From contig JAKEEG010000066.1 in the NCBI GenBank assembly GCA_022616555.1, positions 1,702 to 65,701 on the forward strand: DNA of 64,000 nucleotides. Reading direction: 5' to 3'. This stretch comes from Ignavibacteriota bacterium (GTDB lineage Bacteria > Bacteroidota > Ignavibacteria > UBA10030). Positions 10,634 to 47,216 of this stretch are shown here, piece after piece (position 1 is the first letter of the stretch; every line of letters starts with the position of its first letter). The notes beneath the pieces are model-generated. The model did no database searches. It saw only the letters and a list, made by a program, of their open reading frames with translations, and had not been told where the DNA came from. Position numbers and translations under genes: made by a program.

Positions 10634-10667
10634 GATAATCTTGAAATTCTAATGAGTAACACACCCC

Positions 10668-10788
10668 CCTTGTATCCCCTCTCGCTCTGCTCTTGCCCAC
10701 ACTCGAGAGGGGGCTCATGCACACGAGCCTTGAAAGTCCCCTCTGTGTATATGCAAGCGGGCTTGGGAGAGGGGATTTAGGGGTGTGC
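10668..10788. repeat. two REP-like GC-rich hairpins in the hisB-hisH intergenic gap (CCCCTCTCG...CGAGAGGGGG; GTCCCCTCT...AGAGGGGATTTAGGGGTGTG)
   Basis: Inverted repeats are visible. The second unit recurs at 17911-17964 at roughly 80% identity. Confidence 0.65.
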
Positions 10789-17027: not shown

Positions 17028-17116
17028 AAACCTGCTTGAAGCTTGGGGAAAAGTTTTATAAGTTGTCTATAACAGTATTCAGTTATCAGTGGTCAGGAAT
17101 CAGAAAAGCATAGAGT

Positions 17117-17863
17117 ATGAAAATTGCAGTGTGCATTAACCACGTTCCCGATACGGAAACGAAAGTTAAAGTCGGCGCCGACGGCAAGAGTATTGACCGC
17201 GCGGGAGTGAACTTCATCATCAACCCGTACGACGAGTTTGCGGTCGAAGAGGCGCTCCGTATTAAAGAGAAGCAGACCGGGGAGGTTGTTGTGCTTTCGC
17301 TTGGCGGCGATACACACAAGGAAACACTCCGGAAAGCCCTTGCCATGGGGGTCGACAAAGCTGTGTTGCTGAAAGATGACACTCCGCGTGATTCATACTC
17401 AGTTGCCGCAGCACTCTCGGCAGCGTTGAAGGAGCTCGCGCCGGAGGTGGTGCTGTTCGGCAAGCAGTCGATTGATTCGGACGATGCGGCGGTTGGGTTG
17501 ATGGTGGCGGAAATGCTGGGCTGGGCGTCCGTGGCTGTGGCGGTGAAAGTGGAAATTGCCGACGGCAAAGTCACAGCCGAACGCGAAATCGAAGGCGGGC
17601 ATGAGAAAGTTGAGGCAACGCTGCCGGTCGTTATTACGGCGCAGAAGGGGTTGAACGAGCCCCGGTATCCATCGCTCAAGGGCATCATGGCGGCAAAGAG
17701 CAAGCCAATCGAGGAAAAACCGCCCGCACCAGCACAGAACCGCGCTGAAGTTGTGGAAATGCGCAAACCACCTGCAAAAAGCGCGGGCAAGATTGTCGGC
17801 ACCGGAGCGGATGCTGTGCCCGAGCTGGTGCGATTATTGCACGAAGAAGCAAAAGTCATTTGA
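17117..17863 (+). CDS. etfB: electron transfer flavoprotein beta subunit
   Basis: 248 aa. The start MKIAVCINHVPDTETKV is typical of EtfB. Confidence 0.9.
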   Translation: MKIAVCINHVPDTETKVKVGADGKSIDRAGVNFIINPYDEFAVEEALRIKEKQTGEVVVLSLGGDTHKETLRKALAMGVDKAVLLKDDTPRDSYSVAAALSAALKELAPEVVLFGKQSIDSDDAAVGLMVAEMLGWASVAVAVKVEIADGKVTAEREIEGGHEKVEATLPVVITAQKGLNEPRYPSLKGIMAAKSKPIEEKPPAPAQNRAEVVEMRKPPAKSAGKIVGTGADAVPELVRLLHEEAKVI

Positions 17864-17910
17864 ATGCAGAGTGCAGAATGCAGATTGTAGAGTGAGAATA
17901 ATGTTGGTTA

Positions 17911-17964
17911 AAGTCCCCTCTGTGTGTAAGCGAGTGTGGGAGGGAGACGGGATTTAGGGGTGTG
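17911..17964. repeat. REP-like element (AAGTCCCCTCTGTGTGTAAGCGAGTGTGGGAGGGAGACGGGATTTAGGGGTGTG), second copy of the unit at 10733-10788
   Basis: Direct comparison gives roughly 80% identity over 55 bp. It lies in the intergenic region between etfB and etfA. Confidence 0.65.
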
Positions 17965-17997
17965 TAAACTTAAACTTGTTAGAGTGTTCATAGACCG

Positions 17998-18972
17998 ATG
18001 AAAATTTTGGCATTTGCCGAACAACGAGACGGACAGCTTAAGAAGAACGCATTTGAAGTCGTAAGCGCCGCAAAGAAAATCGCCGAGCAAACGAACGGAG
18101 AAGTCGTTGCGCTTGTTATAGGAGAAGGAGTAGAGGGGATAGCAGCGGCGCTCGGCGGATATGGCGCAAAACGGGTGGTGGTAGTCGACGATGCGCGGTT
18201 GAAACTGTATTCTAGCACGGCATACGCGAAGATCATTGCCGAAGTTGCCGGGAAGGAATCCGCAAGCGTCGTGTTGCTCGCTGCGACGGCGATGGGCAAG
18301 GACGCCGCTCCCCGCGTTGCGGTCAAGTTGGAGGCGGGACTTGCCGTCGATTGCGTTGCGCTGAAAGTCGACGGCGGCGATATTATCGCCACGCGCCCGG
18401 TGTACGCCGGCAAAGCGCAAACGGATATTAAGGTGACAACAAGTGTGAAAGTTTTATCCCTGCGCCCGAACGTGTTCACTGCCGGAACAAGCAACGGAGC
18501 GCAAGCGCCTGTAGAAAAAACGAACGTATCGCTGACGGACGCGGATTTTGCATCCGTTGTAAGAGAGGTGACGCAAGCCACAGGAAAGCTGGATGTTGCC
18601 GAGGCTGATATCATCGTCTCCGGCGGCAGGGGCTTGAAAGGGCCGGAGAATTTCAATATCATCGAAGAGCTGGCAGCGGCGCTCGGCGCAGCCGTAGGAG
18701 CCTCACGCGCGGTGGTCGATGCGGGATGGCGGCCGCACGACGAACAGGTAGGGCAAACGGGTAAAACTGTCTCGCCTTCGCTGTATGTTGCGGTTGCGAT
18801 TTCCGGAGCCATCCAACACCTTGCAGGTATGTCGTCTTCGAAGTATATTGTAGCGATTAACAAGGACAAGGCCGCTCCGATTTTTCAAGTTGCGGATTAC
18901 GGCATCGTGGGCGACGCGTTTGAAATCGTGCCCGCGTTGACAAAGGAAGTGAAAAAGTTGCATGGGAAGTAG
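17998..18972 (+). CDS. etfA: electron transfer flavoprotein alpha subunit
   Basis: 324 aa with the EtfA FAD-binding C-terminal region (SGAIQHLAGM). Confidence 0.9.
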   Translation: MKILAFAEQRDGQLKKNAFEVVSAAKKIAEQTNGEVVALVIGEGVEGIAAALGGYGAKRVVVVDDARLKLYSSTAYAKIIAEVAGKESASVVLLAATAMGKDAAPRVAVKLEAGLAVDCVALKVDGGDIIATRPVYAGKAQTDIKVTTSVKVLSLRPNVFTAGTSNGAQAPVEKTNVSLTDADFASVVREVTQATGKLDVAEADIIVSGGRGLKGPENFNIIEELAAALGAAVGASRAVVDAGWRPHDEQVGQTGKTVSPSLYVAVAISGAIQHLAGMSSSKYIVAINKDKAAPIFQVADYGIVGDAFEIVPALTKEVKKLHGK

Positions 18973-18988
18973 AAATCATTTCGGTAGT

Positions 18989-19043
18989 CGCAGGCTTCAG
19001 CCTGCGGGGTAGAAGTGAGCTGCGCAACCTGAAGGTTGCGGCT
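18989..19043 (+). terminator. tandem tetraloop hairpins (CGCAGGC-ttca-GCCTGCG; GCTGCGCAACC-tgaa-GGTTGCGGC) after etfA
   Basis: Two adjacent stem-loops lie immediately 3' of the etfA stop. No strong T-run follows. Confidence 0.45.
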
Positions 19044-19086
19044 ACCCGTATGTATTTAGAGAGTTTTATTCCAAGGAGACGATGTT

Positions 19087-19671
19087 GTGGAGAAGATTCA
19101 AGTTGACATTTTAGGATTATCGACCAGCCCGTCGTCGGGCGGGGCGTATGCGCTGGTTCTCAAGGAGCTCAATGGACCGCGTCGCCTGCCGATCATCATC
19201 GGCGCGTTCGAGGCGCAGTCCATCGCGCTCGAGATGGAAGGCATCAAGCCGCCCCGGCCTTTGACGCACGACTTGATGAAGACCATCATCGATTCGATGG
19301 GCGCGGGCCTTGCGGATGTGTTCATCAGCGAGCTGAAGGACGGGACCTTTTACGCCCGGCTCAATATCGACAGCCAGGAAATCGACTCGCGCCCCAGCGA
19401 TGCCATCGCTCTCGCGGTCCGCTACGGCGTGCCGATTTTCGTCGCCGACCAGGTGATGGACGAAGCGGCGTTTGTGCCAGAGAACGAGAATGCGGATGCC
19501 TCGGCTACGCCTGAAGCTCCCGCGGCGAAGGAGAAAGCTGCACCGAAGCCGAAGCTTTCCAAGCTTGAACAGCTGCAAAACCAATTAGCCGAAGCGATTG
19601 CCAAAGAAGATTACGAGAAGGCCGCGCACCTGCGGGATGACATCCGCAAACTTCAGGGGCGGGACTCGTAA
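19087..19671 (+). CDS. bifunctional nuclease family protein (DUF151) with C-terminal UVR motif
   Basis: 194 aa with a BFN-like core followed by a UvrB/UvrC-type helical UVR motif (KEDYEKAAHLRDDIRKLQ). Confidence 0.7.
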   Translation: MEKIQVDILGLSTSPSSGGAYALVLKELNGPRRLPIIIGAFEAQSIALEMEGIKPPRPLTHDLMKTIIDSMGAGLADVFISELKDGTFYARLNIDSQEIDSRPSDAIALAVRYGVPIFVADQVMDEAAFVPENENADASATPEAPAAKEKAAPKPKLSKLEQLQNQLAEAIAKEDYEKAAHLRDDIRKLQGRDS

Positions 19672-19679
19672 TCGCATCG

Positions 19680-20645
19680 TTGTTGAACCTCATCGACGAC
19701 TTCCAACGCACACGAAGGAATCCTCTGTTGAACGCTCCCGATACCCGTATGCCTCAAAGCCGCAGGGTTAGCGTAGTCAGTGCGTTTCCCAGTATCCCGC
19801 AGTTTTTTTGCGGGGCGAGCGTCCTCGTGTTGATGTTTCTCAACGTGCTGCCAGCCCTCGGCGCAACTCAGATTTCACCCCCTCCGCATGTGAACGATAC
19901 GACAGCCATTGCTCAAGCCGTCGTTGTAGACAGCATGTCCGCGCTCTTCCTTATTCAGGAGGGCGACGAGTTTGCCGAGAAGGAGTTCGACAACCAGCGC
20001 GCGCTCGCACGCTACCTGGACGCCCTGACGGTTGAGCCTAACAGCGACGAGATCTTCTGGCGCATCAGCCGCGCGTATGTGGACATTGCCGAACACCTGC
20101 CGTCCGTGACCGAGAACGACCGCACCTACCAGCTTGCAACGTACGAGCGGGCGATGGAGTATGCCAACAAGGCGATCGGCGCAGACCCGGGCAGCTCGAT
20201 GGGCTACGCCCGCCGAGCCGTAGCAACCTCACGCATTGCGATGTTCAGTGGCGTGTGGGAGTCGAGCGAGCTGATTAACCGCGTCCGCGAGGACGCGCAA
20301 CGGGCAATCGAGCTTGACCCGCGCAACAGTCTTGCCCACTTCATGCTGGGCCGCACGCACGAGCGGACGAGCGAGCGCCCGTGGATGTTCCGCGTTGTGC
20401 TGGGACTGGCGTGGGCCGACCTGGAAGAAGCAGCCGTGCATTATGAAGAAGCCATCCGCCTGCGCCCCGATTTTATCTCCTACCGCATTTCCTGCGCCCG
20501 TGCGTATTTTGAATTGGGCGAATATGAGAAGGCAAAAGCTCATCTTTCGGTTATTCCCTCCCTCCTCAAGCTGGACGAGGACGACGACCGCTTCAAGCAG
20601 GAAGCCAAAGACCTCGTGGAGAGAATCCGCGAAGAGGAAGAATAA
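19680..20645 (+). CDS. hypothetical TPR-like helical repeat protein (possibly secreted; start uncertain)
   Basis: 321 aa with a hydrophobic segment (VLVLMFLNVLPALGA) followed by helical repeats and an acidic tail. I recognise no specific family. Confidence 0.4.
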   Translation: MLNLIDDFQRTRRNPLLNAPDTRMPQSRRVSVVSAFPSIPQFFCGASVLVLMFLNVLPALGATQISPPPHVNDTTAIAQAVVVDSMSALFLIQEGDEFAEKEFDNQRALARYLDALTVEPNSDEIFWRISRAYVDIAEHLPSVTENDRTYQLATYERAMEYANKAIGADPGSSMGYARRAVATSRIAMFSGVWESSELINRVREDAQRAIELDPRNSLAHFMLGRTHERTSERPWMFRVVLGLAWADLEEAAVHYEEAIRLRPDFISYRISCARAYFELGEYEKAKAHLSVIPSLLKLDEDDDRFKQEAKDLVERIREEEE

Positions 20646-20665
20646 CCTCCCCGCTCACAAAAAAT

Positions 20666-20748
20666 GTCATTGCGAGGCGCCTTATGCCGAAGCAATCTCA
20701 CCGCCGAAGAAAAACGAAATTGCTTCGCTGGAAAACGCTCGCAATGAC
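20666..20748 (+). repeat. two-stem palindromic element E2 (GTCATTGCGAG...CGAAGCAATCT...GAAATTGCTTCG...CTCGCAATGAC) followed by a T-run; probable terminator of the upstream gene
   Basis: Homologous to E1 (9206-9290), with compensatory changes in both stems. It is followed by TGGCTTATTTTTTT. Confidence 0.7.
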
Positions 20749-21421
20749 TGGCTTATTTTTTTGAATGGTGTTTTAAGGATTACTGTCATCTCATACCTAC
20801 CTCTTAACTCCTAGCGTTTTAAGCAGTTATACGATTTTACATTTTCATTGCATTTTTCTCTTGACTTTTCCATTTATCATCATTACATTAAATATCAATA
20901 ATTAGTTAGTATAGCTGTTATCCTGATTCAGCAGGGTAATGGCACCTTCGGGCGTACGGTCTGCAGCTGCCCGCTCGGAGTAAGCGAATTATCAATGTGT
21001 TTTCCTAACTCACTGGCGTCCCCCTCAGCGTCCTTTGTAAGGGCCTACGACACGAAATCCGCTAAGTGCGGACTTCGGGCTCTGGATGCTCTGGGTCGGA
21101 GCCCGCGGGCCTGCCCGCCATTTTTGTGGCGGGGATGTTGCCCGTTCGGGCCGTGCCGAGTGAATCTATTTGTCGTCAACTCTCTCTTAGCCTCGGTGCG
21201 ACGCCTTTCAGTTAGGATAAATTAAAGAAAGCAGGTAATCAGTAAGATAGTAAGCAGTTAGACAACAGCAGATACCGCCACGATCGCCAACAGGCAAGCC
21301 AGACGCTTTCCAAAGAAAAAATCACAAAAGCGTAAAGGCAGGCATGCCTGCCGAAGTGTTTTCGGCACGTAGGCAGGGGTGTGTACATTGGGAGAAGTGG
21401 TCTCAAAAGCTCGAAGGGATT

Positions 21422-21482
21422 GTCATTGCGAGGCGCCTTTTGCCGAAGCAATCTAACCCCAGAAGAAAAACGAGATTGCTTC
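21422..21482 (+). repeat. truncated copy E3 of the two-stem element (lacks the 3' outer arm)
   Basis: Near-identical to the 5' 60 nt of E2. Confidence 0.6.
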
Positions 21483-21574
21483 GTCAGAGATGGAATCCTT
21501 TTTGTACTTAACAATGTCGAGAGTCTTCAACAATTCCTACAAAACTTTCCTGGAGGAATGGAACAGAGAAGATA

Positions 21575-21664
21575 AGAAAGTGGGGGCTTGATTTATCAAG
21601 CCCGTGTTATTTTGCAATCGTAGGGGTTTGATGAATCCATTTGGGTTTGATGAATCAAACCCCT
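21575..21664 (-). terminator. hairpins downstream of the MFS transporter gene (GGGCTTGAT-tt-ATCAAGCCC; GTAGGGGTTTGAT...ATCAAACCCCTAC)
   Basis: A 13-bp stem overlaps the stop codon region of the minus-strand gene, with an additional 9-bp hairpin next to it. Confidence 0.5.
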
Positions 21665-22833
21665 ACAGTCTTGTCCACCCCCTTCCCCCTCTTGTGCGAA
21701 ATCCACAGTGCGAGGGCGCAGACGGCGGCGGCGGCGAAGAACGGCAGCGAGTAATTCCACTCGAACAAAATACCGGCGAGCGGGGGACCAACGACCATCA
21801 TCGCGGCGATGACAGACGACATAATGCCGATGATCTCGCCTTTCATCGTCGGGTCGGCAAGCCCTGCAGCACGGCTGACGAATACGACGCGCAGTGTCGA
21901 GTGCGCGACGGAAAGAATCGGGATGCTGACGGCAAACACGTAGGGGTTGCGGATACCCATCAGTACCATGCTCACACCCATTGCGCTGAGCATACCGAAC
22001 TCCAATTGAGACTCCGTGTATTGCTTCAGCCAGAACGAACGCAAGAAGACCGCTTGGTTGAGTGCCATGAACAGCCCGGAACCCGTGAACATCAACCCGG
22101 TGGTAAACGAATCGAACTCCAACGCGCGCTCGGTGTAGAGCGCGAAAACCGTCTGCGAGGTCATAAATGCCAGCCCGAAGAGTATCCACGAGATGTAGAG
22201 CGGACGCAGGGGTTTATCGTACAGCGCACGCGCGAGCGGCGTAAACGGGTTATAAGTAATCGGCGCGGTGCGGCGTTTGTCGGGAGGCAGTGTCTCCGGC
22301 AAGGAAAAATAAGCCACGACGGTATTGGCAAGCGCGAGGAAGCCGGTGAACAGGAAGGGGAGCGAGTGCGATGTTGTGCTCAGGAATCCGCCCAAACTCG
22401 GACCGACGACGAAGCCAATGCCCCACGTTGCGCCGATGAGCCCGAGGTTTGCAGAGCGTTCTTTATCGTCATGCGCGATGTCAACCAGATAGCTCTGCGC
22501 GATGGTGTAATTGCCGGCCGCAACGCCATCGATAATCCGGCCGAGGAACAACAGCCATATCGTGTGCGCGCTGGCGAAGACAAACCATCCGACAGCCGTG
22601 CTGAAAATGCTGATGAGCAGCACGGGCCTGCGCCCGATTTTATCCGAGAGCGCACCCAAGAACGGGCTGCTCAGGAACGAAAAAAATGCGAACACGGCGA
22701 AGAGCATCGTAATGGTAAATGCCGACGCGCCGAAATCGCCGCCAACGTAATACGGGAGGACGGGGATGACAATCCCGAACCCGAGCACGTCCACAAACAC
22801 GGTAAAGAGAATGGTGAATTTTTGTTTGTTCAT
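21655..22833 (-). CDS. MFS transporter (DHA1 / TetA-like, 12 TM)
   Basis: 392 aa with the motif FTVFVDVLGFGIVIPVLPYY and a loop LSDKIGRRPVL, which are MFS signatures. Confidence 0.85.
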   Translation of the reverse strand: MNKQKFTILFTVFVDVLGFGIVIPVLPYYVGGDFGASAFTITMLFAVFAFFSFLSSPFLGALSDKIGRRPVLLISIFSTAVGWFVFASAHTIWLLFLGRIIDGVAAGNYTIAQSYLVDIAHDDKERSANLGLIGATWGIGFVVGPSLGGFLSTTSHSLPFLFTGFLALANTVVAYFSLPETLPPDKRRTAPITYNPFTPLARALYDKPLRPLYISWILFGLAFMTSQTVFALYTERALEFDSFTTGLMFTGSGLFMALNQAVFLRSFWLKQYTESQLEFGMLSAMGVSMVLMGIRNPYVFAVSIPILSVAHSTLRVVFVSRAAGLADPTMKGEIIGIMSSVIAAMMVVGPPLAGILFEWNYSLPFFAAAAVCALALWISHKRGKGVDKTVGV

Positions 22834-22903
22834 AGTTTATAACATAACCGCAGAGGACGCAGAAAGCGCGGAGAAAAACTCTTAGTGCCCTATAATTTGT
22901 ATC

Positions 22904-23023
22904 CTCCCCCTGTCCGTCTACGACGGACATCCCCCTCAAAGAGGGGGACAAAAGAACTCTGGTTTCATTTCATGTTAAGTCGATTTTGTATATCCCCTCC
23001 CCGAGGGGGATACAGGGGGAGGT
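22904..23023. repeat. cluster of REP-like palindromes (CCCCCTC-aaa-GAGGGGGACAAAAG; ATCCCCTCC-CCGAGGGGGATACAGGGGGAGG) plus the GTCCGTC/GACGGAC hairpin
   Basis: Inverted repeats read directly from the sequence. They lie between the MFS gene start and the 5'-nucleotidase stop. Confidence 0.7.
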
Positions 23024-23036
23024 TTAGAAAAAAACA

Positions 23037-25235
23037 TTACCGCACGAGGATGATAGCGCGTGCGTGGCGGGAGGAGGGCGTTAACATCCGGACGATGTAC
23101 ATCCCGCTTGCCGCCGGCGAGCCGTCGCTGCCGTCGCCTGCCCACCGTACTTGGAATTCGCCTCTCGCCCTCTCTGCATCGAGCAATGTCTTGACTTCCT
23201 GCCCCAGCACATTATACACGCGCACGGCGACACGCGCCGGCGCGGGTATCCCGAATACAATTGTTGTTTCGCGGTTGAACGGGTTGGGATAATTCGGGAG
23301 AATGTAGCTCGTCGTCGGGAGGACGGGCGCTACGTTGGAGACCGGCGGCTGGAGGTAGCTCAAGCCGTTGGTGCGGATTTCTTCCAACTGGTAATAGTAC
23401 GATACGCCGCGCTGGGTGGTTGTGTCGAAAAATTCCGTGGTTGTCAATGAATCCGCATTTAAGTTGGCGAACGGAGCAGTGCCGAGTTTCCGGCGAATGT
23501 TGTACGAGACGACATCGGGGTTGTTTGCCCAGTCGATCAGCACCCCCGTTTCCGTAGAAGTGAACGTGAGCGCGGCCGTGCTTGACGCATTCCACACGCG
23601 CCCCATTTGGATGATACCGGCGTCAAATTCGCCTAAAGAGCCGAGGTATTGTTTCATCGCTTCATCCGCGCCGAAAGCAGTATCTACGCGGCTGATAAAT
23701 TGAATGAGGCCGTTTGATACTTCTCCCGCTAAATCGGCGACAAATTCGTTGAGAGCGATGCGATAAACTTTGTTTAGGTCCAGAGGCTCATTGTTGATCC
23801 AAACATCTTCCACAAAGCCTAACGAGGAAATTGTGTATTGCAATCCAGAGGTTTGGAACGCCAGTCCACCGCCTCCACCGCCGAAAAAATCGGACGACAA
23901 TTGCTGAGCAGAATTGAGCATAAAATGAAACATCGAGCCGGTCATTTCTACGAGCGTGATGCGTTTGCCGAGATTGTGTACCGAGTCGTACGCCCAGGAG
24001 AGCGTCTGCCGAAGCTCCGCAGTGGAGATCGCGCCTGCGTAAAGGCTCTGCCGCATGAGCGATGAGACTTCCAGCGCGGCGTCGGCGTTGGTGGCGTATA
24101 CGTAGGCGTCAGTGACTAAATTCACGAGCGGGGATTCCGGGTTGCCGCCGGAAAAATTATTCTCTGGGAATTCAGCAGTTAACACAGCGACAGTATCGGA
24201 GTACGGGTTGTTGTACGTTGCGTTGATGGAATCGCGGTACGCGTCCAGCAGCGCGGTAAACACGGCGTCTTCATCCAGCGGCGCATCGATTTGATCTAAC
24301 TGGTACGACCACGACTTTGTGCTGTCGGTCAATATCAACGTGAGCATGCCGAGATAGCGCCACTTGGAGCCCGCCTGCACGATAATAGTTGAATCGCCGG
24401 CGGGATTGATTTCGAGCACAGGTTCTTCGAGCGGTGTGTGTGAGTGCCCGCCTACGATAACGTCGATGCCGGCTACGTTCTGTGCGATTCGTCGGTCTTC
24501 GCTCACGCCAAGATGCGTAACGGCGATGATGACATCAACGTTACGTGCAGTAAGTGAGTCTACCATACTTTGCGCTGTGCCGGTAGTGCTTGCAAATGTG
24601 ATTGATTCCGTTTCGCCGTACGAAGTCGTTGTGCGTGTCGTCAACCCGAAGATCCCAACATCCAAGCCGCCGATGTTTTTGACGACGAATGGTTTCACGT
24701 ATTGGTCCAGCCCGCTCGTGTCGGCATTGTACTGAATGTTGGCAGAAAGGATATCGAACATTGCTCCGGATTCCACGATGGCGTTCTTTAATCGGAACGG
24801 ACGGATGTCGAAATCATGGTTGCCGAGCGCCATGGCGGTCATGCCCATTTCGTTGAAGAGCTCAAACTCTGCGCGACCGAGGAAGCGGTTAAAAATCAAA
24901 TCGCCGGTGAAGCTGTCGCCGCCGTGGAGCAACAAGGGATTAACGGATGAATCGCGCAGGACGTTGAGCCGCTGAACAAGCCGAGCCGCCGCGCCGTTTT
25001 GGGGGACGCCGTTCACTTTGGGTCCCCACGGATAGACGTAGCTGTGCGTGTCGTTGATGTGGAAGATGGTCAACGTGTCTTGGGCGTGAATAGTTTGTAT
25101 GAAGAATAAACCGATGAGTAAAATGTTAAGTGTAAAGTAACCCCCTGCGTTCCGGTTAGCCGCGGCTAACCGGAACGCGTCCCCCTTGGTTAGGGGGACA
25201 AAAAAGCTAATGAATTTGTGCATCACACTAAGCAT
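23037..25235 (-). CDS. bifunctional metallophosphatase / 5'-nucleotidase with C-terminal T9SS (Por) sorting domain
   Basis: It has the calcineurin-like motifs GNHDFD and GGHSHT and a 5'-nucleotidase C-domain. The C-terminus (NYPNPFNRETTIVF...VYNVLGQEV...SGMYIVR) is the T9SS type-A sorting signature. The ORF extends to 25361 but the first ATGs are at 25235/25223, so the start is uncertain because REP copies occupy the 5' region. Confidence 0.8.
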   Translation of the reverse strand: MLSVMHKFISFFVPLTKGDAFRLAAANRNAGGYFTLNILLIGLFFIQTIHAQDTLTIFHINDTHSYVYPWGPKVNGVPQNGAAARLVQRLNVLRDSSVNPLLLHGGDSFTGDLIFNRFLGRAEFELFNEMGMTAMALGNHDFDIRPFRLKNAIVESGAMFDILSANIQYNADTSGLDQYVKPFVVKNIGGLDVGIFGLTTRTTTSYGETESITFASTTGTAQSMVDSLTARNVDVIIAVTHLGVSEDRRIAQNVAGIDVIVGGHSHTPLEEPVLEINPAGDSTIIVQAGSKWRYLGMLTLILTDSTKSWSYQLDQIDAPLDEDAVFTALLDAYRDSINATYNNPYSDTVAVLTAEFPENNFSGGNPESPLVNLVTDAYVYATNADAALEVSSLMRQSLYAGAISTAELRQTLSWAYDSVHNLGKRITLVEMTGSMFHFMLNSAQQLSSDFFGGGGGGLAFQTSGLQYTISSLGFVEDVWINNEPLDLNKVYRIALNEFVADLAGEVSNGLIQFISRVDTAFGADEAMKQYLGSLGEFDAGIIQMGRVWNASSTAALTFTSTETGVLIDWANNPDVVSYNIRRKLGTAPFANLNADSLTTTEFFDTTTQRGVSYYYQLEEIRTNGLSYLQPPVSNVAPVLPTTSYILPNYPNPFNRETTIVFGIPAPARVAVRVYNVLGQEVKTLLDAERARGEFQVRWAGDGSDGSPAASGMYIVRMLTPSSRHARAIILVR

Positions 25236-25403
25236 TTTTTTCGCAACATTTTGGATTCCCCCCCCCGCCTCTTCGAGGAACTCCCTCAAGAAGGGGGACA
25301 AAAAAAATCTTTGACCCTCCGCCGAAGATGCAGAGGGAGCAGGGAACGTTTCTGTATGCATTATTAGAAATTCTTCCTCTGTCCCCCTCTACGAGGGGGA
25401 TAC
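25141..25403. repeat. cluster of REP-like palindromes (CCGGTTAGCCGCGGCTAACCGG; TCCCCCTTGGTTAGGGGGACAAAAAAG; ...CTCAAGAAGGGGGACAAAAAAAA; GTCCCCCTCTACGAGGGGGATACAGGGGGAGG)
   Basis: Same family as 22904-23023 and 47184-47216. The first two units fall inside the predicted N-terminal region of the 5'-nucleotidase ORF. Confidence 0.7.
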
Positions 25404-25419
25404 AGGGGGAGGTTATGAT

Positions 25420-26601
25420 TCAAGCCAAACATATTTTTCCTAACACAACTTGTTTCAATGCGCCGGTGACACTTGGGATGTTTGATGGATTTTCGACGAC
25501 AGTTTCGTTAGCCAACAATGCGAAAATCATCGCCTCCTTGGCGTCTGAAGAAATGCCGATATGCTCAATCGTATTGACGGCCGCCGGTGCGAAATGTTTC
25601 CGCAAGCTTTTCATAATCGCTCTATTATATGCGCCGCCGCCGCTGACGAGCAGCTCATCGACCTTCATGCGCTGTGCAATAAATTTTTTGTACTGCGAAT
25701 AAACAGCATACGCTGTAAACTCTGTTGCAGTTGCGAGGATGTCGGCTTTGTGTGCGCCTTTCGCACGGGTTAGCAAGCGATTGATGAACGCCGCGCCGAA
25801 CTCCTCGCGACCGGTAGATTTAGGCGGCTTACGTTTGAAAAACGGATGCGACATCATCCAGTTGAGGAGTGAAGGTATAACACGCCCGCGCAGGGCGAGC
25901 GTTCCGTTCGGGTCGAATTTTTTTTCGTAAAACTTCCGCGTGAGTGCGTCGATCACCATGTTGGCTGGACCCGTATCGAATGCGGTCACTTGCCGCGGGG
26001 AGCAGTTCTTCGGGAGGATTGTGAAATTCGCGATGCCGCCTAAATTTAACAGGATGCGGTTTTTGGATTTCGACCTGCACAGGGCAAAATCGAAATACGG
26101 TGCAAGCGGTGCACCTTGCCCGCCGACAGCCATGTCGGCGGCGCGGAAATCGCCTATCGTTGTAATACCCGTCAGTTGCGCGATGGTGGATGGGTCACTA
26201 ATTTGCAGGGTGGCGCGCACGGTTTTGCCGAACATCCGGTGCGGGTTGGGCAGGTGGTGTATCGTTTGCCCGTGCGAGCCGATGAGGTCTATGCTCGAAA
26301 GCGCTACGCGCGCTTTACGGACAATGCGCTTCACCGCGTCGGCGAAGAAGTGCGCGTAGATGATGTTCAACCGCGCAATAGTATCGACAGTGCCCGAGCC
26401 GGGTAGTGAATTTTTCAACACCAACTCGCGGAAGCCTTTCGGGAACTTGTAGGTATCGAACGCCAGCAGCTTGATGCGCGCGGAAGCTCCAGAGCCGGAA
26501 ATCCGCACCAAAGCTGCATCAATGCCGTCGAGCGAGGTGCCGGACATCAGTCCTACTACAAGCTTTGTATGCTTGCGTTGAAGTTGTGTAAGTTTTGTCA
26601 T
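25420..26601 (-). CDS. anmK: anhydro-N-acetylmuramic acid kinase
   Basis: 393 aa with the start VVGLMSGTSLDGIDAALV, typical of AnmK. Confidence 0.9.
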   Translation of the reverse strand: MTKLTQLQRKHTKLVVGLMSGTSLDGIDAALVRISGSGASARIKLLAFDTYKFPKGFRELVLKNSLPGSGTVDTIARLNIIYAHFFADAVKRIVRKARVALSSIDLIGSHGQTIHHLPNPHRMFGKTVRATLQISDPSTIAQLTGITTIGDFRAADMAVGGQGAPLAPYFDFALCRSKSKNRILLNLGGIANFTILPKNCSPRQVTAFDTGPANMVIDALTRKFYEKKFDPNGTLALRGRVIPSLLNWMMSHPFFKRKPPKSTGREEFGAAFINRLLTRAKGAHKADILATATEFTAYAVYSQYKKFIAQRMKVDELLVSGGGAYNRAIMKSLRKHFAPAAVNTIEHIGISSDAKEAMIFALLANETVVENPSNIPSVTGALKQVVLGKICLA

Positions 26602-26692
26602 TCGGAATTTTTATGATACAAAAAAGTCCTGATAGTTACTGCTTTAATCGGCTTGACTCCATCTTTCCTTCCAAGTACTTTAGTAGAACGCT

Positions 26693-27748
26693 ATGCCCGA
26701 GACCGTCACACTGAAAGAGCTTCTTACCCAGCACACGAAGGTGGGCGAGCTGTACCACACTATGCCCGATGACTGGGTGCGGTGCTACGCGTGCGGGCAC
26801 CGGTGCAAAATTCCGCCCGGCAAGGATGGCATTTGCCGCGTGCGCTTTAACCGCGATGGCAAACTCTATGTGCCGTGGGGCTACGTGGGCGCATTGCAGC
26901 TCGACCCGGTGGAGAAAAAACCGTTCTTCCACGCGTACCCGGCATCGAAAGCGCTGAGCTTCGGCATGCTTGGCTGCGACTACCATTGCGGGTATTGCCA
27001 GAACTGGGTCACGTCGCAGGCGTTGCGCGACCCGGTTGCAGGCGCACCGCCGGAATTTATCTCGCCGGAGGAATTTGTCGACCTCGCGCTCAAGCATAAA
27101 GCGAAAATCGTTACCAGCACGTATAACGAGCCGCTTATTACGAGCGAGTGGGGAGTTGAGATCTTCAAGCTCGCGAAAAAGGTCGGGCTTGTTACTTCCT
27201 ATGTCTCGAACGGCAACGGTACAGCGGAAGTACTGGACTATATCCAGCCGCATGTTGATTTATATAAAGTCGATTTGAAGGGATTCCGTCAGAAGGCATA
27301 CTCGCAGCTCGGCGGGGTCTTGCAGAACGTGCTCGATACGATTAAGATGCTGCACGAGCGCGGCATCTGGCTGGAGATTGTGACGCTGACGATTCCCGGC
27401 TTCAATGACTCCGATGAAGAGCTCAAAGATATTGCGAATTTCCTTGTCTCGGTCTCACCGGATATTCCGTGGCATGTGACGGCATTTCACAAAGACTATA
27501 AAATGACGGAGCCGGATAATACTCCGGTGAAAACATTGATACGCGCGGCGGAGATCGGCTACAACGCGGGCTTGCATTACGTGTACGCGGGCAACAGACC
27601 GGGAGAGGTCGGTACGTACGAGAATACATTTTGTCCGTCGTGTCGTGAAACGCTCATCGAGCGATGGGGATTTAAGGTTGAAAGCAATAGGCTAAAAGAC
27701 GGCGCGTGCGTCAAGTGCGGGACAAAGATAGCGGGACGGTGGGAATAA
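26693..27748 (+). CDS. amrS: AmmeMemoRadiSam system radical SAM enzyme
   Basis: 351 aa with an N-terminal Cys-rich stretch (CYACGHRCKIPPGKDGICRV) and a radical-SAM CxxxCxxC-type motif (CDYHCGYCQNW). The overall pattern matches this family. Confidence 0.8.
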   Translation: MPETVTLKELLTQHTKVGELYHTMPDDWVRCYACGHRCKIPPGKDGICRVRFNRDGKLYVPWGYVGALQLDPVEKKPFFHAYPASKALSFGMLGCDYHCGYCQNWVTSQALRDPVAGAPPEFISPEEFVDLALKHKAKIVTSTYNEPLITSEWGVEIFKLAKKVGLVTSYVSNGNGTAEVLDYIQPHVDLYKVDLKGFRQKAYSQLGGVLQNVLDTIKMLHERGIWLEIVTLTIPGFNDSDEELKDIANFLVSVSPDIPWHVTAFHKDYKMTEPDNTPVKTLIRAAEIGYNAGLHYVYAGNRPGEVGTYENTFCPSCRETLIERWGFKVESNRLKDGACVKCGTKIAGRWE

Positions 27749-27871
27749 AAAGCAGCGGGGGAGTCCCGCTAAACAGCGGCGGGATTTCGCAGAAAACGCT
27801 CAACAGAGGGGCTGGGGGCAGAAGAGGCGAAGGAAAAAAATTATCACGCTATAACTTAACAAGGGGGATTT

Positions 27872-28720
27872 ATGAAACGCATTCTTGCAGTACTCGTATT
27901 TGGTTGTTCATACTGTTGGGCTCAAATTCCAAATCCGGGGTTTGAGCAGTGGACGAGCGGAGAACCGGATGGATGGTTGACAAACAATGCTCAGGGGGTT
28001 GTTGTACCTTTTACGCAATCTTCAACAGCAAATTCGGGCACGTCGGCACTACGCGGTGAAGTGCTAGATTTTATGGGATTCACATACCCAATATTTATCC
28101 TTGCGGGTGAGGATGGGGAAGGATTTCCGGTCAGCGAGCGTCACGCGAACCTTACGGGATATTACCAATTTTCTCCCGATAGCGGCGATCAATTACTTAT
28201 CGGTGCAACGATGTTGCAGGGCGGTGTGCTACTCGGAGCGGGATACGTTGAAATTCAAGGCCTTGCCTCGAGCTACACGGCGTTCAGTTTTCCGATTGAG
28301 TATTTTGGGGAAGGGAATCCCGACACCTGTTATATCGATATTACGATCATCCCGGCAGAAGGAGACACGACTATTCACGTCGGCTCTTTCATGCTGATTG
28401 ACGACCTTGCGTTTAGCGGCATCACGTCTGTAGAGCAAATCACGCAAACGGTACCTGAGCAATTCATGCTCAACCAGAATTATCCGAACCCGTTCAACCC
28501 GAGCACCAATTTCGAATTTCGGATTGCGGAATCCGGAATGACCACGCTGAAAGTGTTCAACATGCTCGGTATTGAGGTTGCAACTCTTCTCTCGCAACAA
28601 CTTAACGCGGGGACGTACAGAGTGCCGTGGAATGCTTCCGGATTGCCGAGCGGCGCGTACATCTATCGACTTGAATCGGGTGGATTGACGCAATCAAAAA
28701 AGCTGTTATTGTTGAAGTAA
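27872..28720 (+). CDS. hypothetical secreted protein with T9SS C-terminal sorting domain
   Basis: 282 aa with a signal peptide. The C-terminus (NYPNPFNPSTNFEF...VFNMLGIEVATL...SGAYIYRL) is the T9SS type-A sorting signature. Confidence 0.65.
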   Translation: MKRILAVLVFGCSYCWAQIPNPGFEQWTSGEPDGWLTNNAQGVVVPFTQSSTANSGTSALRGEVLDFMGFTYPIFILAGEDGEGFPVSERHANLTGYYQFSPDSGDQLLIGATMLQGGVLLGAGYVEIQGLASSYTAFSFPIEYFGEGNPDTCYIDITIIPAEGDTTIHVGSFMLIDDLAFSGITSVEQITQTVPEQFMLNQNYPNPFNPSTNFEFRIAESGMTTLKVFNMLGIEVATLLSQQLNAGTYRVPWNASGLPSGAYIYRLESGGLTQSKKLLLLK

Positions 28721-28724
28721 ACCG

Positions 28725-29039
28725 ATGTCACACGTCATACTCATCATCACGGTCGCGATTGCGGCTTTGAATTTTTCTAAGCCGACAACTGTTGACAGGC
28801 AGCGAAGTGATCCGGACTCAACAGAAGCACTTGTGACGTTCGGGCAGCAAATCGCTCCATTGCTTAAGACAAACTGCTCACCATGCCATTTCGAAGGCGG
28901 GCAGGTCTATGGCCGTTACCCGTTTGACGATTATGTAACCGTCAAAAAGCTTGGTGAACAATTAAACACGCGTCTCAAAGAGAAGGGACAAAAATCACTC
29001 GTAACTGATTGGCTGAAATCCGGAGCGAGAGAGAAGTAG
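28725..29039 (+). CDS. small secreted protein with CxxCH heme-binding motif (PSCyt-like c-type cytochrome domain)
   Basis: 104 aa with an N-terminal TM/signal segment. FGQQIAPLLKTNCSPCHFEGG resembles the planctomycete-type cytochrome c domain motif (F..V.PIL...C..CHG). Confidence 0.45.
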   Translation: MSHVILIITVAIAALNFSKPTTVDRQRSDPDSTEALVTFGQQIAPLLKTNCSPCHFEGGQVYGRYPFDDYVTVKKLGEQLNTRLKEKGQKSLVTDWLKSGAREK

Positions 29040-29074
29040 CAGGGATTGCTCACATTCAACAAAGAGGACTGCCA

Positions 29075-29587
29075 ATGCTCCAGATGAGTCTCGTATTCCT
29101 CACGCTCTTCTTCGCTGGACATCTACAAACGCCCCCGACGATGTCAAAGCAAAACCGGTTGAAGCCTGTAGCATTTATGGTCGGCGGAACGTGGACGGCA
29201 AAAGGAAGTATTGAAGGATTTGGAGAGTATGTTGCTGAGCGCACCTACTGGTGGTCGCTCGATAGCAACTTTATCGAGCAGCGGCACCGTATGAGCATTG
29301 CCGGCTCGCAAATCGAAGCACACGGTGTCATCGGGTGGGATGCAGTCAGCAAGAAGATTGTCGGGTACGGGTTCGGCAACGACGGGGGCATCGCGACAAC
29401 GACAGCAACAGTAACGGCGGGAACGATTGTGTTTGAAGGGTCCCGCATGGGCGGGTACAATCCCGGCGCGTTACGCGGCACGTTCACCATCAAAAACGAA
29501 AACGAATATACTGAGAGCGTTGAAACGCAAAAAGACGGAAAGTGGATTCCCTCGTTTTCACTGCAGTGGGTACGGAACAAGAACTGA
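29075..29587 (+). CDS. hypothetical secreted protein
   Basis: The start is placed at the ATG at 29075 (MLQMSLVFLTLFFAGHLQ, a signal peptide, with an upstream AAAGAGGA RBS) rather than at the ORF-track start of 29009. I recognise no family. Confidence 0.45.
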   Translation: MLQMSLVFLTLFFAGHLQTPPTMSKQNRLKPVAFMVGGTWTAKGSIEGFGEYVAERTYWWSLDSNFIEQRHRMSIAGSQIEAHGVIGWDAVSKKIVGYGFGNDGGIATTTATVTAGTIVFEGSRMGGYNPGALRGTFTIKNENEYTESVETQKDGKWIPSFSLQWVRNKN

Positions 29588-30114
29588 TGATCCCCCAGAC
29601 CAAATGGTTCGACAGGAAGTGGGAGTTTGATTTTCCGGTTGGATATTTCCCGGCGATCCTCGAGCGGTTTCGCGGAACACCCGCCCGGATTGAAGACTTG
29701 GTAAAATCGCTTCCCGCTGAAATCTTGGCTGTCCGCATCGGCGAGGCGTGGTCGATTCAAGAACACATCGGCCATTTGCTGGACTTAAGCGACCTCGATG
29801 AGCGTCGTCTTGCGGATTATCTCGCAGGAGCGGAGAGGCTCAGCCCAGCAGACCCGCAGAATAAGAAAACCTACGAAGCGGATTACAACTCGCAGGTGCT
29901 CCAAAATATTTTGAGGGATTTCCGGAAAAGCCGCGAAGAGCTTGTGTGGAAATTCGAACGCCTTACCGAAGAACAAATCGCCCGCGTCGCTATCCATCCG
30001 CGCCTGAAGCAATCGTTGCGGCTGGTCGATTGGCTCTACTTTATGGCAGAGCACGACGACCATCACATTGCCCGGATGACCGCCAATGCAAGAATCTTGC
30101 AGAAAAGGGGATAG
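29587..30114 (+). CDS. DinB family protein (DinB_2-like)
   Basis: The start is the ATG overlapping the upstream stop (TGATG). It has the histidine motifs HIGHLLD and HDDHH. Confidence 0.6.
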   Translation: MIPQTKWFDRKWEFDFPVGYFPAILERFRGTPARIEDLVKSLPAEILAVRIGEAWSIQEHIGHLLDLSDLDERRLADYLAGAERLSPADPQNKKTYEADYNSQVLQNILRDFRKSREELVWKFERLTEEQIARVAIHPRLKQSLRLVDWLYFMAEHDDHHIARMTANARILQKRG

Positions 30115-30153
30115 AACTTGACCATCGATTAATTATTTGATAGAATTATTTTT

Positions 30154-30519
30154 ATGCCTATCTTTCGTCAGACACATATAGTTGCCATTGCTTTAGCGAT
30201 AATGCTCTCCAGCTTTGGTTTTCTCTGCAGCGATGCGGGCGTGAACTCTGTGGAAACGAAACCTGGCGAGAAAGTAGAAGTATTGTTGAAAGAGGGCAAC
30301 AGTATAACGCTTGAACCCGATAACTTCGTTCTGGAGTTTTCGAGCGTAGAACAGGATTCACGTTGCCCCGACGATGTTGTATGTGTGTGGCAAGGCGAGG
30401 CGGAGATCATGCTCACTCTGCTCATTCAACGGGGTAGAATGCGGCGGAATGTTACAATCCCTGGATTAGTGCAAACTCCTTACCGTGGAGAGGCAATTGA
30501 AATGCTTCGTATCGTCTGA
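30154..30519 (+). CDS. hypothetical lipoprotein/secreted protein
   Basis: 121 aa with a signal peptide and a Cys in a lipobox-like position (FGFLC). Confidence 0.4.
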   Translation: MPIFRQTHIVAIALAIMLSSFGFLCSDAGVNSVETKPGEKVEVLLKEGNSITLEPDNFVLEFSSVEQDSRCPDDVVCVWQGEAEIMLTLLIQRGRMRRNVTIPGLVQTPYRGEAIEMLRIV

Positions 30520-30622
30520 GACTCTTGCAGCTCGACCCGTACCCGAGCAATGAAGGCAGCACTGGATCTCCTGAGTACATCGCACGGCTTGAAGTTGAAA
30601 AGGTGCAATGATAGTTTTATCA

Positions 30623-30660
30623 CCCTCCTCCCCTAACCCCCTCGGGGAGGGGGACAATAC
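30623..30660. repeat. REP-like palindrome (CCTCCCCTAACCCCCTCGGGGAGGGGGACAATACAG)
   Basis: Same CCCCCTC/GAGGGGGACA family as the other REP copies. Confidence 0.65.
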
Positions 30661-30663
30661 AGA

Positions 30664-47183: not shown

Positions 47184-47216
47184 TGTCCCCCTCCCAGAGG
47201 GGGATACAGGGGGAGA
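47184..47216. repeat. REP-like palindrome (TGTCCCCCTCCCAGAGGGGGATACAGGGGGAG)
   Basis: Near-identical to the copies at 22992-23023 and 25371-25403. Confidence 0.7.

Follow-up and report, generated by a model that had tools for sequence, protein, structure and literature searches.

BoxC or PIT elements have been known since the 1990s, and to our knowledge neither a function nor a mobilising enzyme has been assigned to them in the literature. In E. coli, BoxC corresponds to the PIT elements (Hoyne et al. 2000) and to TMECO (Holder et al. 2015, PMC4666352). The latter study defined class II motifs, set the limits of the ITxF at 6-15 triads for the stem and 1-6 nt for the loops, and reported triplex formation by BoxC/TMECO in vitro; duplex DNA gave no triplex signal in vitro by CD and NMR, and DMS footprinting yielded no evidence of triplex in vivo. 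The elements are intergenic without strand bias, form inverted pairs of two subtypes and have no reported association with transposons, phages or plasmids (PMC4666352). Whalefall-1 (RF01762; Weinberg et al. 2010, PMC2864571), a candidate sRNA, is known only from whale-fall metagenomes.

Here we describe a G/C-run repeat in a 64-kb window of an Ignavibacteriota MAG, the window being the whole stretch of DNA that was analysed. Ten units occupy six gene junctions, and five of them flank a minus-strand 5'-nucleotidase gene. The repeats make up a new family by sequence and are of a kind already known: the units are likely to be intergenic repeats, non-coding and non-autonomous, that belong with BoxC/PIT/TMECO among the class II purine-motif intrastrand triplex motifs and that filled operon junctions and rebuilt a gene start.

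Repeat units at gene junctions of the window

Eight window units show, with perfect pairs, one order on a single strand: a pyrimidine-rich arm, a loop, the complementary purine arm, a second loop and a 3' reverse-Hoogsteen arm (Table 1). On the G-rich strand the layout is TCCCCCTC-tac-GAGGGGGA-tac-AGGGGGAG, in which TCCCCCTC is the pyrimidine arm, GAGGGGGA the purine arm and AGGGGGAG the purine/T tail that mirrors the purine arm across a short loop. This second loop is either YAC or a nested hairpin, which varies in sequence among copies and always occupies the same place. A unit-type sequence of the G-rich strand reads TCCCCCTCTACGAGGGGGATACAGGGGGAG.

The pattern CCCCTYN2-8RAGGGG matched the window five times compared with 0.01 matches expected from shuffles, and GAGGGGGATACAGGGGGAG occurs exactly at 23003, 25393 and 47197 with an expectation of 0. 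A class II scanner returned nine perfect hits compared with 0.41 in 100 dinucleotide shuffles; six hits had at least seven triads, compared with 0.02 in dinucleotide shuffles. Among the Y-R hairpins of the window, the tail stood in the class II position in 4 of 23 and never upstream or as a direct copy. These controls bear out the earlier note: the repeats are a dispersed, non-random family at gene boundaries, two multi-copy clusters flank the 774-codon ORF (minus strand, 23037..25361), and a G/C-run repeat exists at every position that it had listed. Its interval 25371-25403 is better set at 25380-25414, the repeat that it had placed at 25261-25310 is a degenerate unit with boundaries at about 25258-25300, and the copy at 17911-17964 has a degenerate purine arm. 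The three copies taken as near-identical are so over about 31 nt (22994-23024, 25384-25414 and 47188-47218; 90-94% identity).

Five units lie on the plus and five on the minus strand, and both orientations were found behind minus-strand genes. Several units start 6-13 nt past a stop codon. At three of the six sites (10660-10786, 22904-23024 and 25140-25414) they form inverted doublets or clusters, in which the doublet halves are different subtypes and not copies of each other. Unit 5' ends are TGT or TAT, with no GTAG-like tetranucleotide, and inspection of the six sites by eye revealed no consistent target-site duplication. Scanning of 22700-25600 for terminators and promoters gave no hits at the units and no more hits than in shuffles, and no T-run follows the unit hairpins.

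Stem and loop lengths fall within the ITxF limits in 25382-25411, 47186-47215 and 30628-30652; the nested-hairpin units exceed the loop limit, with second loops of 18 and 33 nt. The TMECO pattern CCCTCNCCC-N3-6-GGGNGAGGG-N3-GGGNGAGGG is not matched by the window units, which have C5/G5 cores. Two other folds were ruled out: a G-quadruplex, since each strand of a unit offers only two G-runs, and alternative Watson-Crick pairing of the tail, since its complementarity with the pyrimidine arm is confined to the C5/G5 run. In Watson-Crick-only folding with ViennaRNA, which cannot model triplexes, the C-run can pair with either G-run.

Table 1. Repeat units of the window and features of the 5'-nucleotidase gene
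Feature	Position	Strand	Structure	Remarks
Inverted doublet, second family with the same layout	10660..10786			Between hisB and hisH
Doublet half	10660-10712	-	CCCCTCTC..GAGAGGGG-atacaagg-GGGGTGTG	
Doublet half	10737-10786	+	TCCCCTCT..AGAGGGGA-ttt-AGGGGTGT	
Decayed second-family copy	17914..17964	+	Purine arm AGACGGGA	Between etfB and etfA
Unit with hairpin nested in loop 2	22904..22948	-	TCCCCCTC-ttt-GAGGGGGA-tgt[CCGTCgtaGACGG]ac-AGGGGGAG	5' flank CTTTTG to 22958; fold z -4.9 (Watson-Crick folding)
Canonical unit	22994..23021	+	CCCCTC-ccc-GAGGGG-gatacag-GGGGAG	Conserved block 22992-23024, starting 13 nt past the 5'-nucleotidase stop codon; 6 triads, 7-nt loop 2 (scanner parse)
5'-Nucleotidase gene	23037..25223	-	Metallophos, 5_nucleotid_C, FlgD_ig, sub-threshold T9SS C-terminal sorting domain	PGAP start
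N-terminal extension	25140..25223	-	MHKFISFFVPLTKGDAFRLAAANRNAGG	Not in any orthologue; alternative start ATG 25235
Unit with 26-nt perfect palindrome nested in loop 2	25140..25198	-	TCCCCCT-aacca-AGGGGGA-cgcg[TTCCGGTTAGCCGCGGCTAACCGGAA]cgc-AGGGGGT	TTTTTTG before it; DNA fold -27.1 kcal/mol, z -6.6 (Watson-Crick folding)
Degenerate unit, hairpin nested in loop 2	25258..25300	-	TCCCCCT-tcttg-AGGGAG-tt-CCTCgaaGAGG-c-GGGGGGGGG	TTTTTTTTG before it; upstream of ATG 25235/25223; read directly, imperfect in class II scanner
Canonical triplex-type unit	25382..25411	+	TCCCCCTC-tac-GAGGGGGA-tac-AGGGGGAG	8 perfect triads, loops 3 and 3 nt; conserved block 25380-25414, starting 6 nt past the anmK stop codon
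Single unit	30628..30652	-	CCCCTC-ccc-GAGGGG-gtta-GGGGAG	Block 30623-30657; between convergent genes; 6 triads, loops 3/4
Single canonical unit	47186..47215	+	TCCCCCTC-cca-GAGGGGGA-tac-AGGGGGAG	8 triads, loops 3/3; starts 9 nt past the stop codon of a UDG-family gene

Arm and tail covariation in other genomes

The same core was found in MAGs of at least five phyla. This cross-phylum set was fetched by the core 19-mer, which makes conservation of the core a matter of construction; unbiased information comes from the extensions and from 45 further motifs that lack the search 19-mer. The hairpin is present in 116 of 129 instances of the 19-mer, conservation ends exactly at the end of the tail, and the tail took the class II position in 114 cases, an upstream position in 2 and that of a direct copy in 16. 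As copies within a genome are not independent, they were collapsed into 38 distinct architectures of arm and tail, among which relatedness remains. In these, G·G, A·A or A·T (triads G·GC, A·AT, T·AT) account for 85 of the 95 positions in the extensions, compared with 49.1±5.3 in permutations, none of which reached 85 in 10,000 trials, and with 53 of 95 in the direct, non-mirror register. The 45 further motifs contain 7-13 perfect triads each, and one of them (locus L047) is the exact E. coli TMECO pattern.

The mirror covariation spans Bacillota, Chloroflexota, Bacteroidota/Ignavibacteriota, Desulfobacterota-like 'Deltaproteobacteria' and Planctomycetota, and it is kept even with a hairpin of arbitrary sequence nested in loop 2. 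This covariation of arm and tail speaks for the triplex register. Instances of the motif lie in ORF interiors in 18% of cases, compared with 67% of random positions. A search for phage carriage in IMG/VR found only three contigs that hold the 19-mer.

By analogy with the known kind, the G-rich strand would become single-stranded in replication, repair or transcription, whereupon the first two arms would form a Watson-Crick hairpin and the tail would fold back antiparallel to the purine arm through reverse-Hoogsteen G·GC, A·AT and T·AT triads. Such folds may block polymerases and favour slippage or template switching, which would explain the build-up, duplication and diversification of units at gene junctions. 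In transcripts, the palindromic core might further stabilise 3' ends as REPs do, whichever way the unit is oriented. A bolder proposal, which we put forward tentatively and consider doubtful, is that the triplex fold itself is seen by selection or by a copying mechanism. The mirror covariation would then be comparative evidence for three-stranded DNA in vivo, and BoxC, the C5/G5 family and whalefall-1 would belong to one pan-bacterial class of ssDNA elements that some machinery propagates or uses.

The start of the 5'-nucleotidase gene

The 5'-nucleotidase ORF is open to 25361 (774 codons), and gene callers assigned the protein 728 aa (P0001, with the PGAP start at ATG 25223) and 774 aa; its orthologues have about 703 aa. 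The in-frame starts ATG 25361, ATG 25235, GTG 25226 and ATG 25223 all lie upstream of unit 25140-25198, and no in-frame ATG, GTG or TTG was found between 25222 and the signal-peptide core. The lack of a canonical start beyond the repeat leaves ATG 25223 and ATG 25235 as the predicted starts of the protein. Unit 25140-25198 thus falls within the sole canonical frame that could be read, and the predicted protein would carry about 27 additional residues at its N-terminus, of which the repeat encodes 20.

The earlier note had expected CCGGTTAGCCGCGGCTAACCGG and TCCCCCTTGGTTAGGGGGACA to be translated, and they correspond to residues V55-G74 of the long ORF. The start that it had named, ATG 25235, does lie upstream of unit 25140-25198, but the ATG nearest the mature protein is 25223. 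It had offered insertion of the repeat into coding sequence as one of two readings, to be refuted by orthologues with the same N-terminal residues. The outcome favours insertion: the orthologues (50-73% identity) have ordinary signal peptides of 20-24 aa and share none of the extra N-terminal residues, and syntenic loci show the insertion places. In two orthologous loci (L121 and L122; 64% identical), anmK, the 5'-nucleotidase gene and an MFS gene are tightly packed, with a TAATG overlap and a 6-nt spacer, whereas the spacers of the window counterpart measure about 200 nt and are filled with units. In the closest relative (L119), one unit is already present at this junction. Comparison of the junctions with the orthologous loci places the ancestral ATG under the tail of unit 25140-25198.

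Taking an ancestral compact operon as the starting point, on the basis of the two related loci L121 and L122, we infer that units filled both junctions of the anmK / 5'-nucleotidase / MFS operon. One repeat copy would have overwritten the original start of the secreted 5'-nucleotidase gene, the tail of unit 25140-25198 replacing the ancestral ATG together with a signal-peptide n-region rich in lysine. The start would now be confined to the stretch separating two units, where ATG 25223 and ATG 25235 lie, and K/R residues of the extra N-terminus plausibly stand in for the lost n-region. The gene could also be silent. The locus would thus provide a concrete case in which a unit reshaped the 5' end of a gene for a secreted enzyme within an operon. 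It is also a warning for annotation, as start codons and 'N-terminal extensions' beside such units are repeat-derived.

A second, independent NCBI assembly, GCA_973857345.1, differs from the window at only 3 SNPs across 18,911 bp, a stretch that takes in all five units. The three SNPs cluster beside one unit and are the one observation that bears on the recombination hot spots suggested by the earlier note; their variant sequence was sought nearby as a possible template-switch donor and none was found.

Alternative readings and relation to known repeats

The earlier note had named the units a REP family and had called such clusters frequent RAYT/transposase targets. Classical REP or REPIN sequences are hairpin repeats, often in inverted doublets, that are excised and copied as ssDNA by a single-copy RAYT, an IS200-like Y1 transposase, encoded elsewhere in the genome. 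The ten units in 64 kb share the REP-type features of short, imperfect, extragenic, multi-copy palindromes in inverted doublets. Like REP/BIME and REPIN-RAYT sequences (PMC2817692, PMC3337134), they are short G/C-rich palindromes at gene junctions or within operons, present in many copies and often as inverted doublets; they form hairpins in intergenic positions, and the doublets or clusters at three of six sites resemble REPINs. A related Ignavibacteria MAG also carries a RAYT-like gene (L057 250-783, Pfam Y1_Tnp 2.5e-14). However, this gene is flanked by unrelated hairpins, and it was the only match in a tblastn search with approximate IS200/IS608 TnpA queries of 882 kb around 130 copies of the motif. 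In the 64 kb covered of the units' own genome, Pfam searches of 20 small ORFs and 8 neighbouring genes recovered housekeeping genes only, with no Y1 transposase among the small ORFs. The RAYT/REP label is unsupported: neither the 64-kb window nor the 882 kb searched in other genomes showed a Y1 transposase beside the motif. All-against-all clustering of 1,370 ORFs around copies revealed no recurrent neighbour but ABC ATPases. The units differ from REP/REPIN sequences (PMC2817692, PMC3337134) in having a third, mirrored segment and no GTAG-type tetranucleotide, and in that no RAYT was found in the sequence covered. The conserved 'AYACAGGGGGAGG' is this mirror copy of the purine arm and not a REP flank. 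The REP model leaves unexplained why the tail should mirror the purine arm while tolerating A-to-T changes, and the doublet halves belong to different subtypes instead of being mutual copies. An origin as REP/REPIN sequences is therefore unlikely.

We regard it as similarly improbable, though a shade less so, that the units act as RNA, either as a structured RNA like whalefall-1 or as terminator or mRNA-stabilising hairpins at cistron ends, with an RNA-level role for the G-rich tail. The opening of several units shortly after a stop codon would suit this reading, as would the sub-threshold whalefall-1 matches. These are full-length (model positions 1-56) and, with scores of 23.8, 18.1 and 16.4 bits, fall short of the gathering score of 37; the best, unit 22904-22948, is not a member by Rfam's rule. 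Whalefall-1, rated a certain RNA by Weinberg et al. (PMC2864571), consists of a first hairpin (UCuCuCC / GGaGaGA), a second hairpin and an unpaired G-rich tail (AGgGuGAGGAC), which is the layout of units 22904-22948 and 25140-25198. However, neither the whole window nor 18 loci gave an Rfam match at gathering score, and at E-value level only the sub-threshold whalefall-1 matches appeared, plus noise (TCL6_3, PyrR201). Orientation to the flanking genes is evenly split, the hairpins lack T-runs, the terminator scan was blank at the units, and beyond the C5/G5 run the tail does not pair with the pyrimidine arm. Purine-motif triplexes, moreover, do not form in RNA (literature cited in PMC4666352). 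Whalefall-1 has been interpreted as RNA, whereas we read the window units as a DNA repeat. As we read the whalefall-1 consensus, 6 of 7 tail positions would obey the triad rule when set against the purine arm of the same model, and at least one Rfam 'sRNA' may also be a DNA repeat of the BoxC-like class.

Chance low-complexity runs or an assembly artefact, with an ordinary protein N-terminus on the 5'-nucleotidase, had to be weighed as well, given the simplicity of G- and C-runs as sequence and the risk of chimeras in MAG assemblies. This reading has a vanishingly small probability and is refuted by the shuffle controls, by the identity of the independent assembly over the five units and by the orthologues, which lack the extra residues.

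The favoured assignment to the BoxC/PIT/TMECO kind rests on a common layout of pyrimidine arm, 3-6 nt loop, purine arm, 3-nt loop and mirrored purine tail. Both are G/C-rich with 8-9 triads and T·AT beside A·AT, lie between genes without strand bias, frequently form inverted pairs of two subtypes and have no known associated mobility gene. The arms differ, being T-C5-TC / GA-G5-A / A-G5-AG in the window and CCCTCNCCC / GGGNGAGGG in TMECO. Two features fall outside the ITxF loop limit of 1-6 nt, namely the 13-26 nt hairpin nested in loop 2 of one window subfamily and the first loop of 21-23 nt in the second family. Unlike BoxC/PIT/TMECO, the window case has one unit within a reading frame. BoxC/PIT/TMECO elements reside in Proteobacteria, whereas the window family is found in MAGs of Ignavibacteriota and at least four other phyla, and it thereby adds to this kind a distinct C5/G5 family common to MAGs of several phyla.

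Mirrored-tail units in the window

The palindromic core of the repeat matched five times in the window against 0.01 expected, the 19-mer GAGGGGGATACAGGGGGAG three times against 0 expected, and three repeat copies shared 90-94% identity over 31 nt, which bears out the repeat family of the earlier note as non-random. A plain palindrome was rejected as a description of the units, since a third, mirrored segment is present on the G-rich strand. On this strand all copies read TCCCCCTC - 3 nt - GAGGGGGA - YAC - AGGGGGAG, the last segment being the mirror image of the purine arm, i.e. the same strand with its order reversed. This is a class II purine-motif intrastrand triplex layout, as in BoxC of Escherichia coli. 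A purpose-written scanner combining a pyrimidine arm, a purine-only arm in perfect Watson-Crick pairing and a mirrored tail (G opposite G; A or T opposite A) returned nine perfect hits in the window compared to 0.41 in 100 dinucleotide-preserving shuffles, and six compared to 0.02 at a threshold of at least 7 triads. Eight of the nine perfect hits are units of the earlier note; the ninth, intragenic and with long loops (15314-15403), is probably due to chance. Two further copies are decayed.

Repeat units, genes and candidate start codons (window positions unless a locus is named)
Feature	Position	Strand	Remark
Unit	10660-10712	-	perfect scanner hit
Unit	10737-10786	+	perfect scanner hit
Unit	22904-22948	-	perfect scanner hit
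Unit	22994-23021	+	perfect scanner hit
Unit	25140-25198	-	perfect scanner hit
Unit	25382-25411	+	perfect scanner hit
Unit	30628-30652	-	perfect scanner hit
Unit	47186-47215	+	perfect scanner hit
Decayed unit	about 25258-25300	-	beyond scanner hits
Decayed unit	17914-17964	+	beyond scanner hits
774-codon 5'-nucleotidase ORF	23037..25361	-	ORF reading
anmK	25420..26601	-	upstream neighbour of 5'-nucleotidase gene
MFS transporter gene	21655..22833	-	downstream neighbour of 5'-nucleotidase gene
Candidate start ATG	25223	-	PGAP's choice
Candidate start ATG	25235	-	A-rich stretch precedes
Candidate start ATG	25361	-	other assembly's caller; 774 aa; translates a further unit
Candidate start ATT	25124	-	non-canonical; 15-residue peptide, no positive charge
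RAYT-like Y1 transposase gene	L057 250-783		Pfam Y1_Tnp 2.5e-14

Around the 5'-nucleotidase gene, the three units on the minus strand have in common a 5' T-run (TTTTTTG); the second loop of each contains a nested hairpin, whose sequence differs each time (CCGTC/GACGG, CCTC/GAGG and a 26-nt perfect palindrome); a related unit at L119, an orthologous locus, has the nested hairpin GCCCC/GGGGC. The related units near 10.7 kb and 17.9 kb follow the same layout rule with another core, AGAGGGGA-ttt-AGGGGTGT.

Repeats of other types are also present in the window, which has a G+C content of 52%. A different repeat (TGTCATTGCGAGGCGCC...GCCGAAGCAATCT...) occurs twice, at 92% identity (20665-20727 and 21421-21483), in and beside 593 nt that lack a long ORF (20646-21238), and an inverted repeat of another hairpin type, containing GTCATTCTGAG / CTCAGAATGAC (9189-9216 / 9280-9307), lies where two minus-strand genes are 149 nt apart. 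The creD gene (47659-48975, Pfam CreD 5.9e-150) is bracketed by an inverted pair (47276-47303 / 49070-49097, 86% complementary) and a direct pair (47405-47439 / 49122-49156, 86% identical) within two gaps, 481 and 450 nt, that are unusually long. An internal duplication at 54416-55035 (spacing 459 nt; 76% identity over 92 nt, 86% over 36 nt) suggests that ORF 54221-55216 encodes a two-domain repeat protein. The gene at 1213-1596 belongs to the 23S rRNA intervening-sequence protein family (PF05635, 5.1e-38); its bAvd-like match is weak.

Covariation of arm and tail in other genomes

An exact scan for GAGGGGGAYACAGGGGGAG in one genome per GTDB species gave at least 118 loci, compared to a chance estimate, under uniform base composition, on the order of ten matches in 596 Gb. 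Among the matches listed, the loci came from about 70 assemblies, including many Dehalococcoidia and Chloroflexia, rabbit-gut Clostridia, Ignavibacteria, Melioribacteraceae, Flavobacteriales, Bacteroidales (Prevotellaceae, Muribaculaceae), Calditrichales, Syntrophaceae and other 'Deltaproteobacteria', Fimbriimonadaceae and Planctomycetota.

As the core served as search key, only sequence beyond it is informative. Among the matches listed, 116 of 129 instances had a hairpin partner (7 bp or more) for the first G-run. In a separate count over Y-R hairpins, the mirrored segment lay behind the purine arm 114 times and ahead of the pyrimidine arm only twice. Moreover, the inner extension of the purine arm covaries with the outer extension of the tail in mirror register: GGA before the arm core goes with AGG after the tail core, GGGG with GGGG, AAG with GTT, and AAGG with GGTT. 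In 38 distinct architectures among these matches, 85 of 95 extension positions were G·G, A·A or A·T. With the tails permuted, 49.1±5.3 positions fitted and 0 of 10,000 permutations reached 85; the direct (non-mirror) register gave 53. Just one 'mismatch' of arm and tail is frequent: T facing A, which is the purine motif's own T·AT triad. Conservation in three large subfamilies drops to background right after the last tail base, which makes the tail the element's 3' edge. The repeat is predominantly intergenic, with 18% of the instances among the matches listed falling in ORF interiors compared to 67% of random positions.

These loci, again among the matches listed, contain 45 additional perfect motifs with 7-13 triads that lack the search key, e.g. 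AAGGAGAGGGGGA-ccg-AGGGGGTGAGGTT. One of them, CCCTCTCCC-tct-GGGAGAGGG-ctg-GGGTGAGGG (L047, minus strand, offset 5926), agrees exactly with TMECO/BoxC of E. coli. L047, a 'delta proteobacterium' MAG locus, holds this pattern and the C5/G5 family together.

Gene junctions and start codon of the 5'-nucleotidase

The window belongs to an Ignavibacteriota MAG: its 5'-nucleotidase is 100% identical to NCBI MCI0707583.1 ('MAG: Ignavibacteriae bacterium') and comprises Metallophos, 5_nucleotid_C and FlgD_ig domains and a sub-threshold Por_Secre_tail. Orthologues at 50-73% identity have 701-720 aa and an ordinary N-terminal signal peptide, in the orthologue P0002 MSYHKSKFILILLVLSVSTAHAQ followed by KTLTIFHINDTHS, compared to MHKFISFFVPLTKGDAFRLAAANRNAGGYFTLNILLIGLFFIQTIHAQ followed by DTLTIFHINDTHS in the window protein. 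At the orthologous loci L121 and L122 (64% identity) the three genes lie close together: the stop of anmK overlaps the start of the following gene (TAATG), and the 5'-nucleotidase and MFS genes are just 6 nt apart. The window junctions span about 196 nt with three units and about 203 nt with two. The first junction of L119, the closest relative (73%), is 97 nt long with one 'double' unit and a normal ATG 25 nt later, and L120 (67%) has other upstream genes and lacks the motif. At the 5'-nucleotidase/MFS junction of L119 (2791-2930), a different long hairpin with CACGAAG-type repeats stands in place of triplex-type units.

At the nucleotide level ...ATG AGT TAC... of L119 aligns with ...GGG GGT TAC... 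of the window, which puts the tail AGGGGGT of unit 25140-25198 where the old start codon stood. The old n-region lysines are absent from the window protein, and no in-frame ATG, GTG or TTG was found between 25222 and the hydrophobic core. As judged from these alignments, the junctions are altered and the N-terminus has no orthologous counterpart; together with the compact L121/L122 junctions and the differing N-termini, this upholds the proposed insertion of the repeat into the 5' end of the gene. We infer that the gene uses an upstream ATG: translation would begin at 25223 or 25235, and K/R of the repeat-encoded stretch may replace the lost n-region. A start at the ATT is unlikely.

A second assembly, GCA_973857345.1, matches window positions 16451-35361 over 18,911 bp without gaps, ruling out an assembly artefact as source of the units. 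The two differ only at 25210, 25215 and 25216, three positions within 7 bp that adjoin unit 25140-25198 and alter the long ORF at codons 49 and 51 (K49T, I51S). No template-switch donor for this cluster was found nearby. The cluster fits local instability as reported around TMECO motifs, or weak constraint on the stretch.

REP elements, whalefall-1 and BoxC/PIT/TMECO

The earlier note regarded the units as a REP family, often a target of RAYT (Y1 transposase), a label that is wrong or at least unsupported: the mirrored-tail layout is BoxC-like, and no Y1 transposase was present among the scanned window ORFs. A tblastn search of 882 kb around motif copies with approximate IS200 and IS608 TnpA sequences detected one real Y1_Tnp gene, in the Ignavibacteria MAG locus L057. 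A triplex-type unit lies there at 1886-1934, 1.1 kb downstream of the gene, but the hairpins on either side of the gene (158-185 and 765-795) are ordinary ones, unrelated to the motif. Furthermore, no recurrent protein family adjoins the motif copies, and the 19-mer almost never occurs in phage contigs. Over the sequence covered, the RAYT hypothesis thus lacks support but is not refuted.

Rfam whalefall-1 (RF01762) aligned at full length, below its gathering score of 37, with 22901-22951 (-, 23.8 bits), 22988-23024 (+, 18.1 bits) and 25314-25403 (-, 16.4 bits). It is listed as an RNA from whale-fall metagenomes only (Weinberg et al. 2010, PMC2864571). Because its consensus has the layout of the units, a hairpin, a second hairpin and an unpaired G-rich tail, this 'sRNA' could be a DNA repeat of the triplex type.

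The layout is known from the E. coli BoxC repeat, which was rediscovered as PIT elements (Hoyne et al. 2000) and later examined under the name TMECO, with the pattern CCCTCNCCC-N3-6-GGGNGAGGG-N3-GGGNGAGGG (Holder et al. 2015, PMC4666352). According to that study, the isolated strand forms a stable triplex by CD and NMR, duplex DNA in vitro gave no triplex signal and in-vivo DMS footprinting none, and purine-motif triplexes are stated not to form in RNA. TMECO motifs are strictly intergenic, without strand bias, promoter/terminator activity or association with transposons, phages or plasmids, and rearrangement is commoner around them than at control sites (PMC4666352). PMC4666352 makes no mention of covariation, Bacteroidota, Ignavibacteria or Dehalococcoidia, and the later papers covered take up the study by citation only. 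The window units are inferred to form triplexes in vivo, and polymerase stalling would be the source of local unit expansion. TMECO inverted pairs are frequent and always combine two subtypes (PMC4666352); similarly, the window units are balanced in orientation (five plus, five minus) and form, at three of six sites, inverted doublets or clusters pairing a canonical with a nested-hairpin unit. As a sequence family the window repeat is new, and it includes a nested-hairpin variant; in kind it belongs to the known BoxC-like intrastrand triplex repeats.
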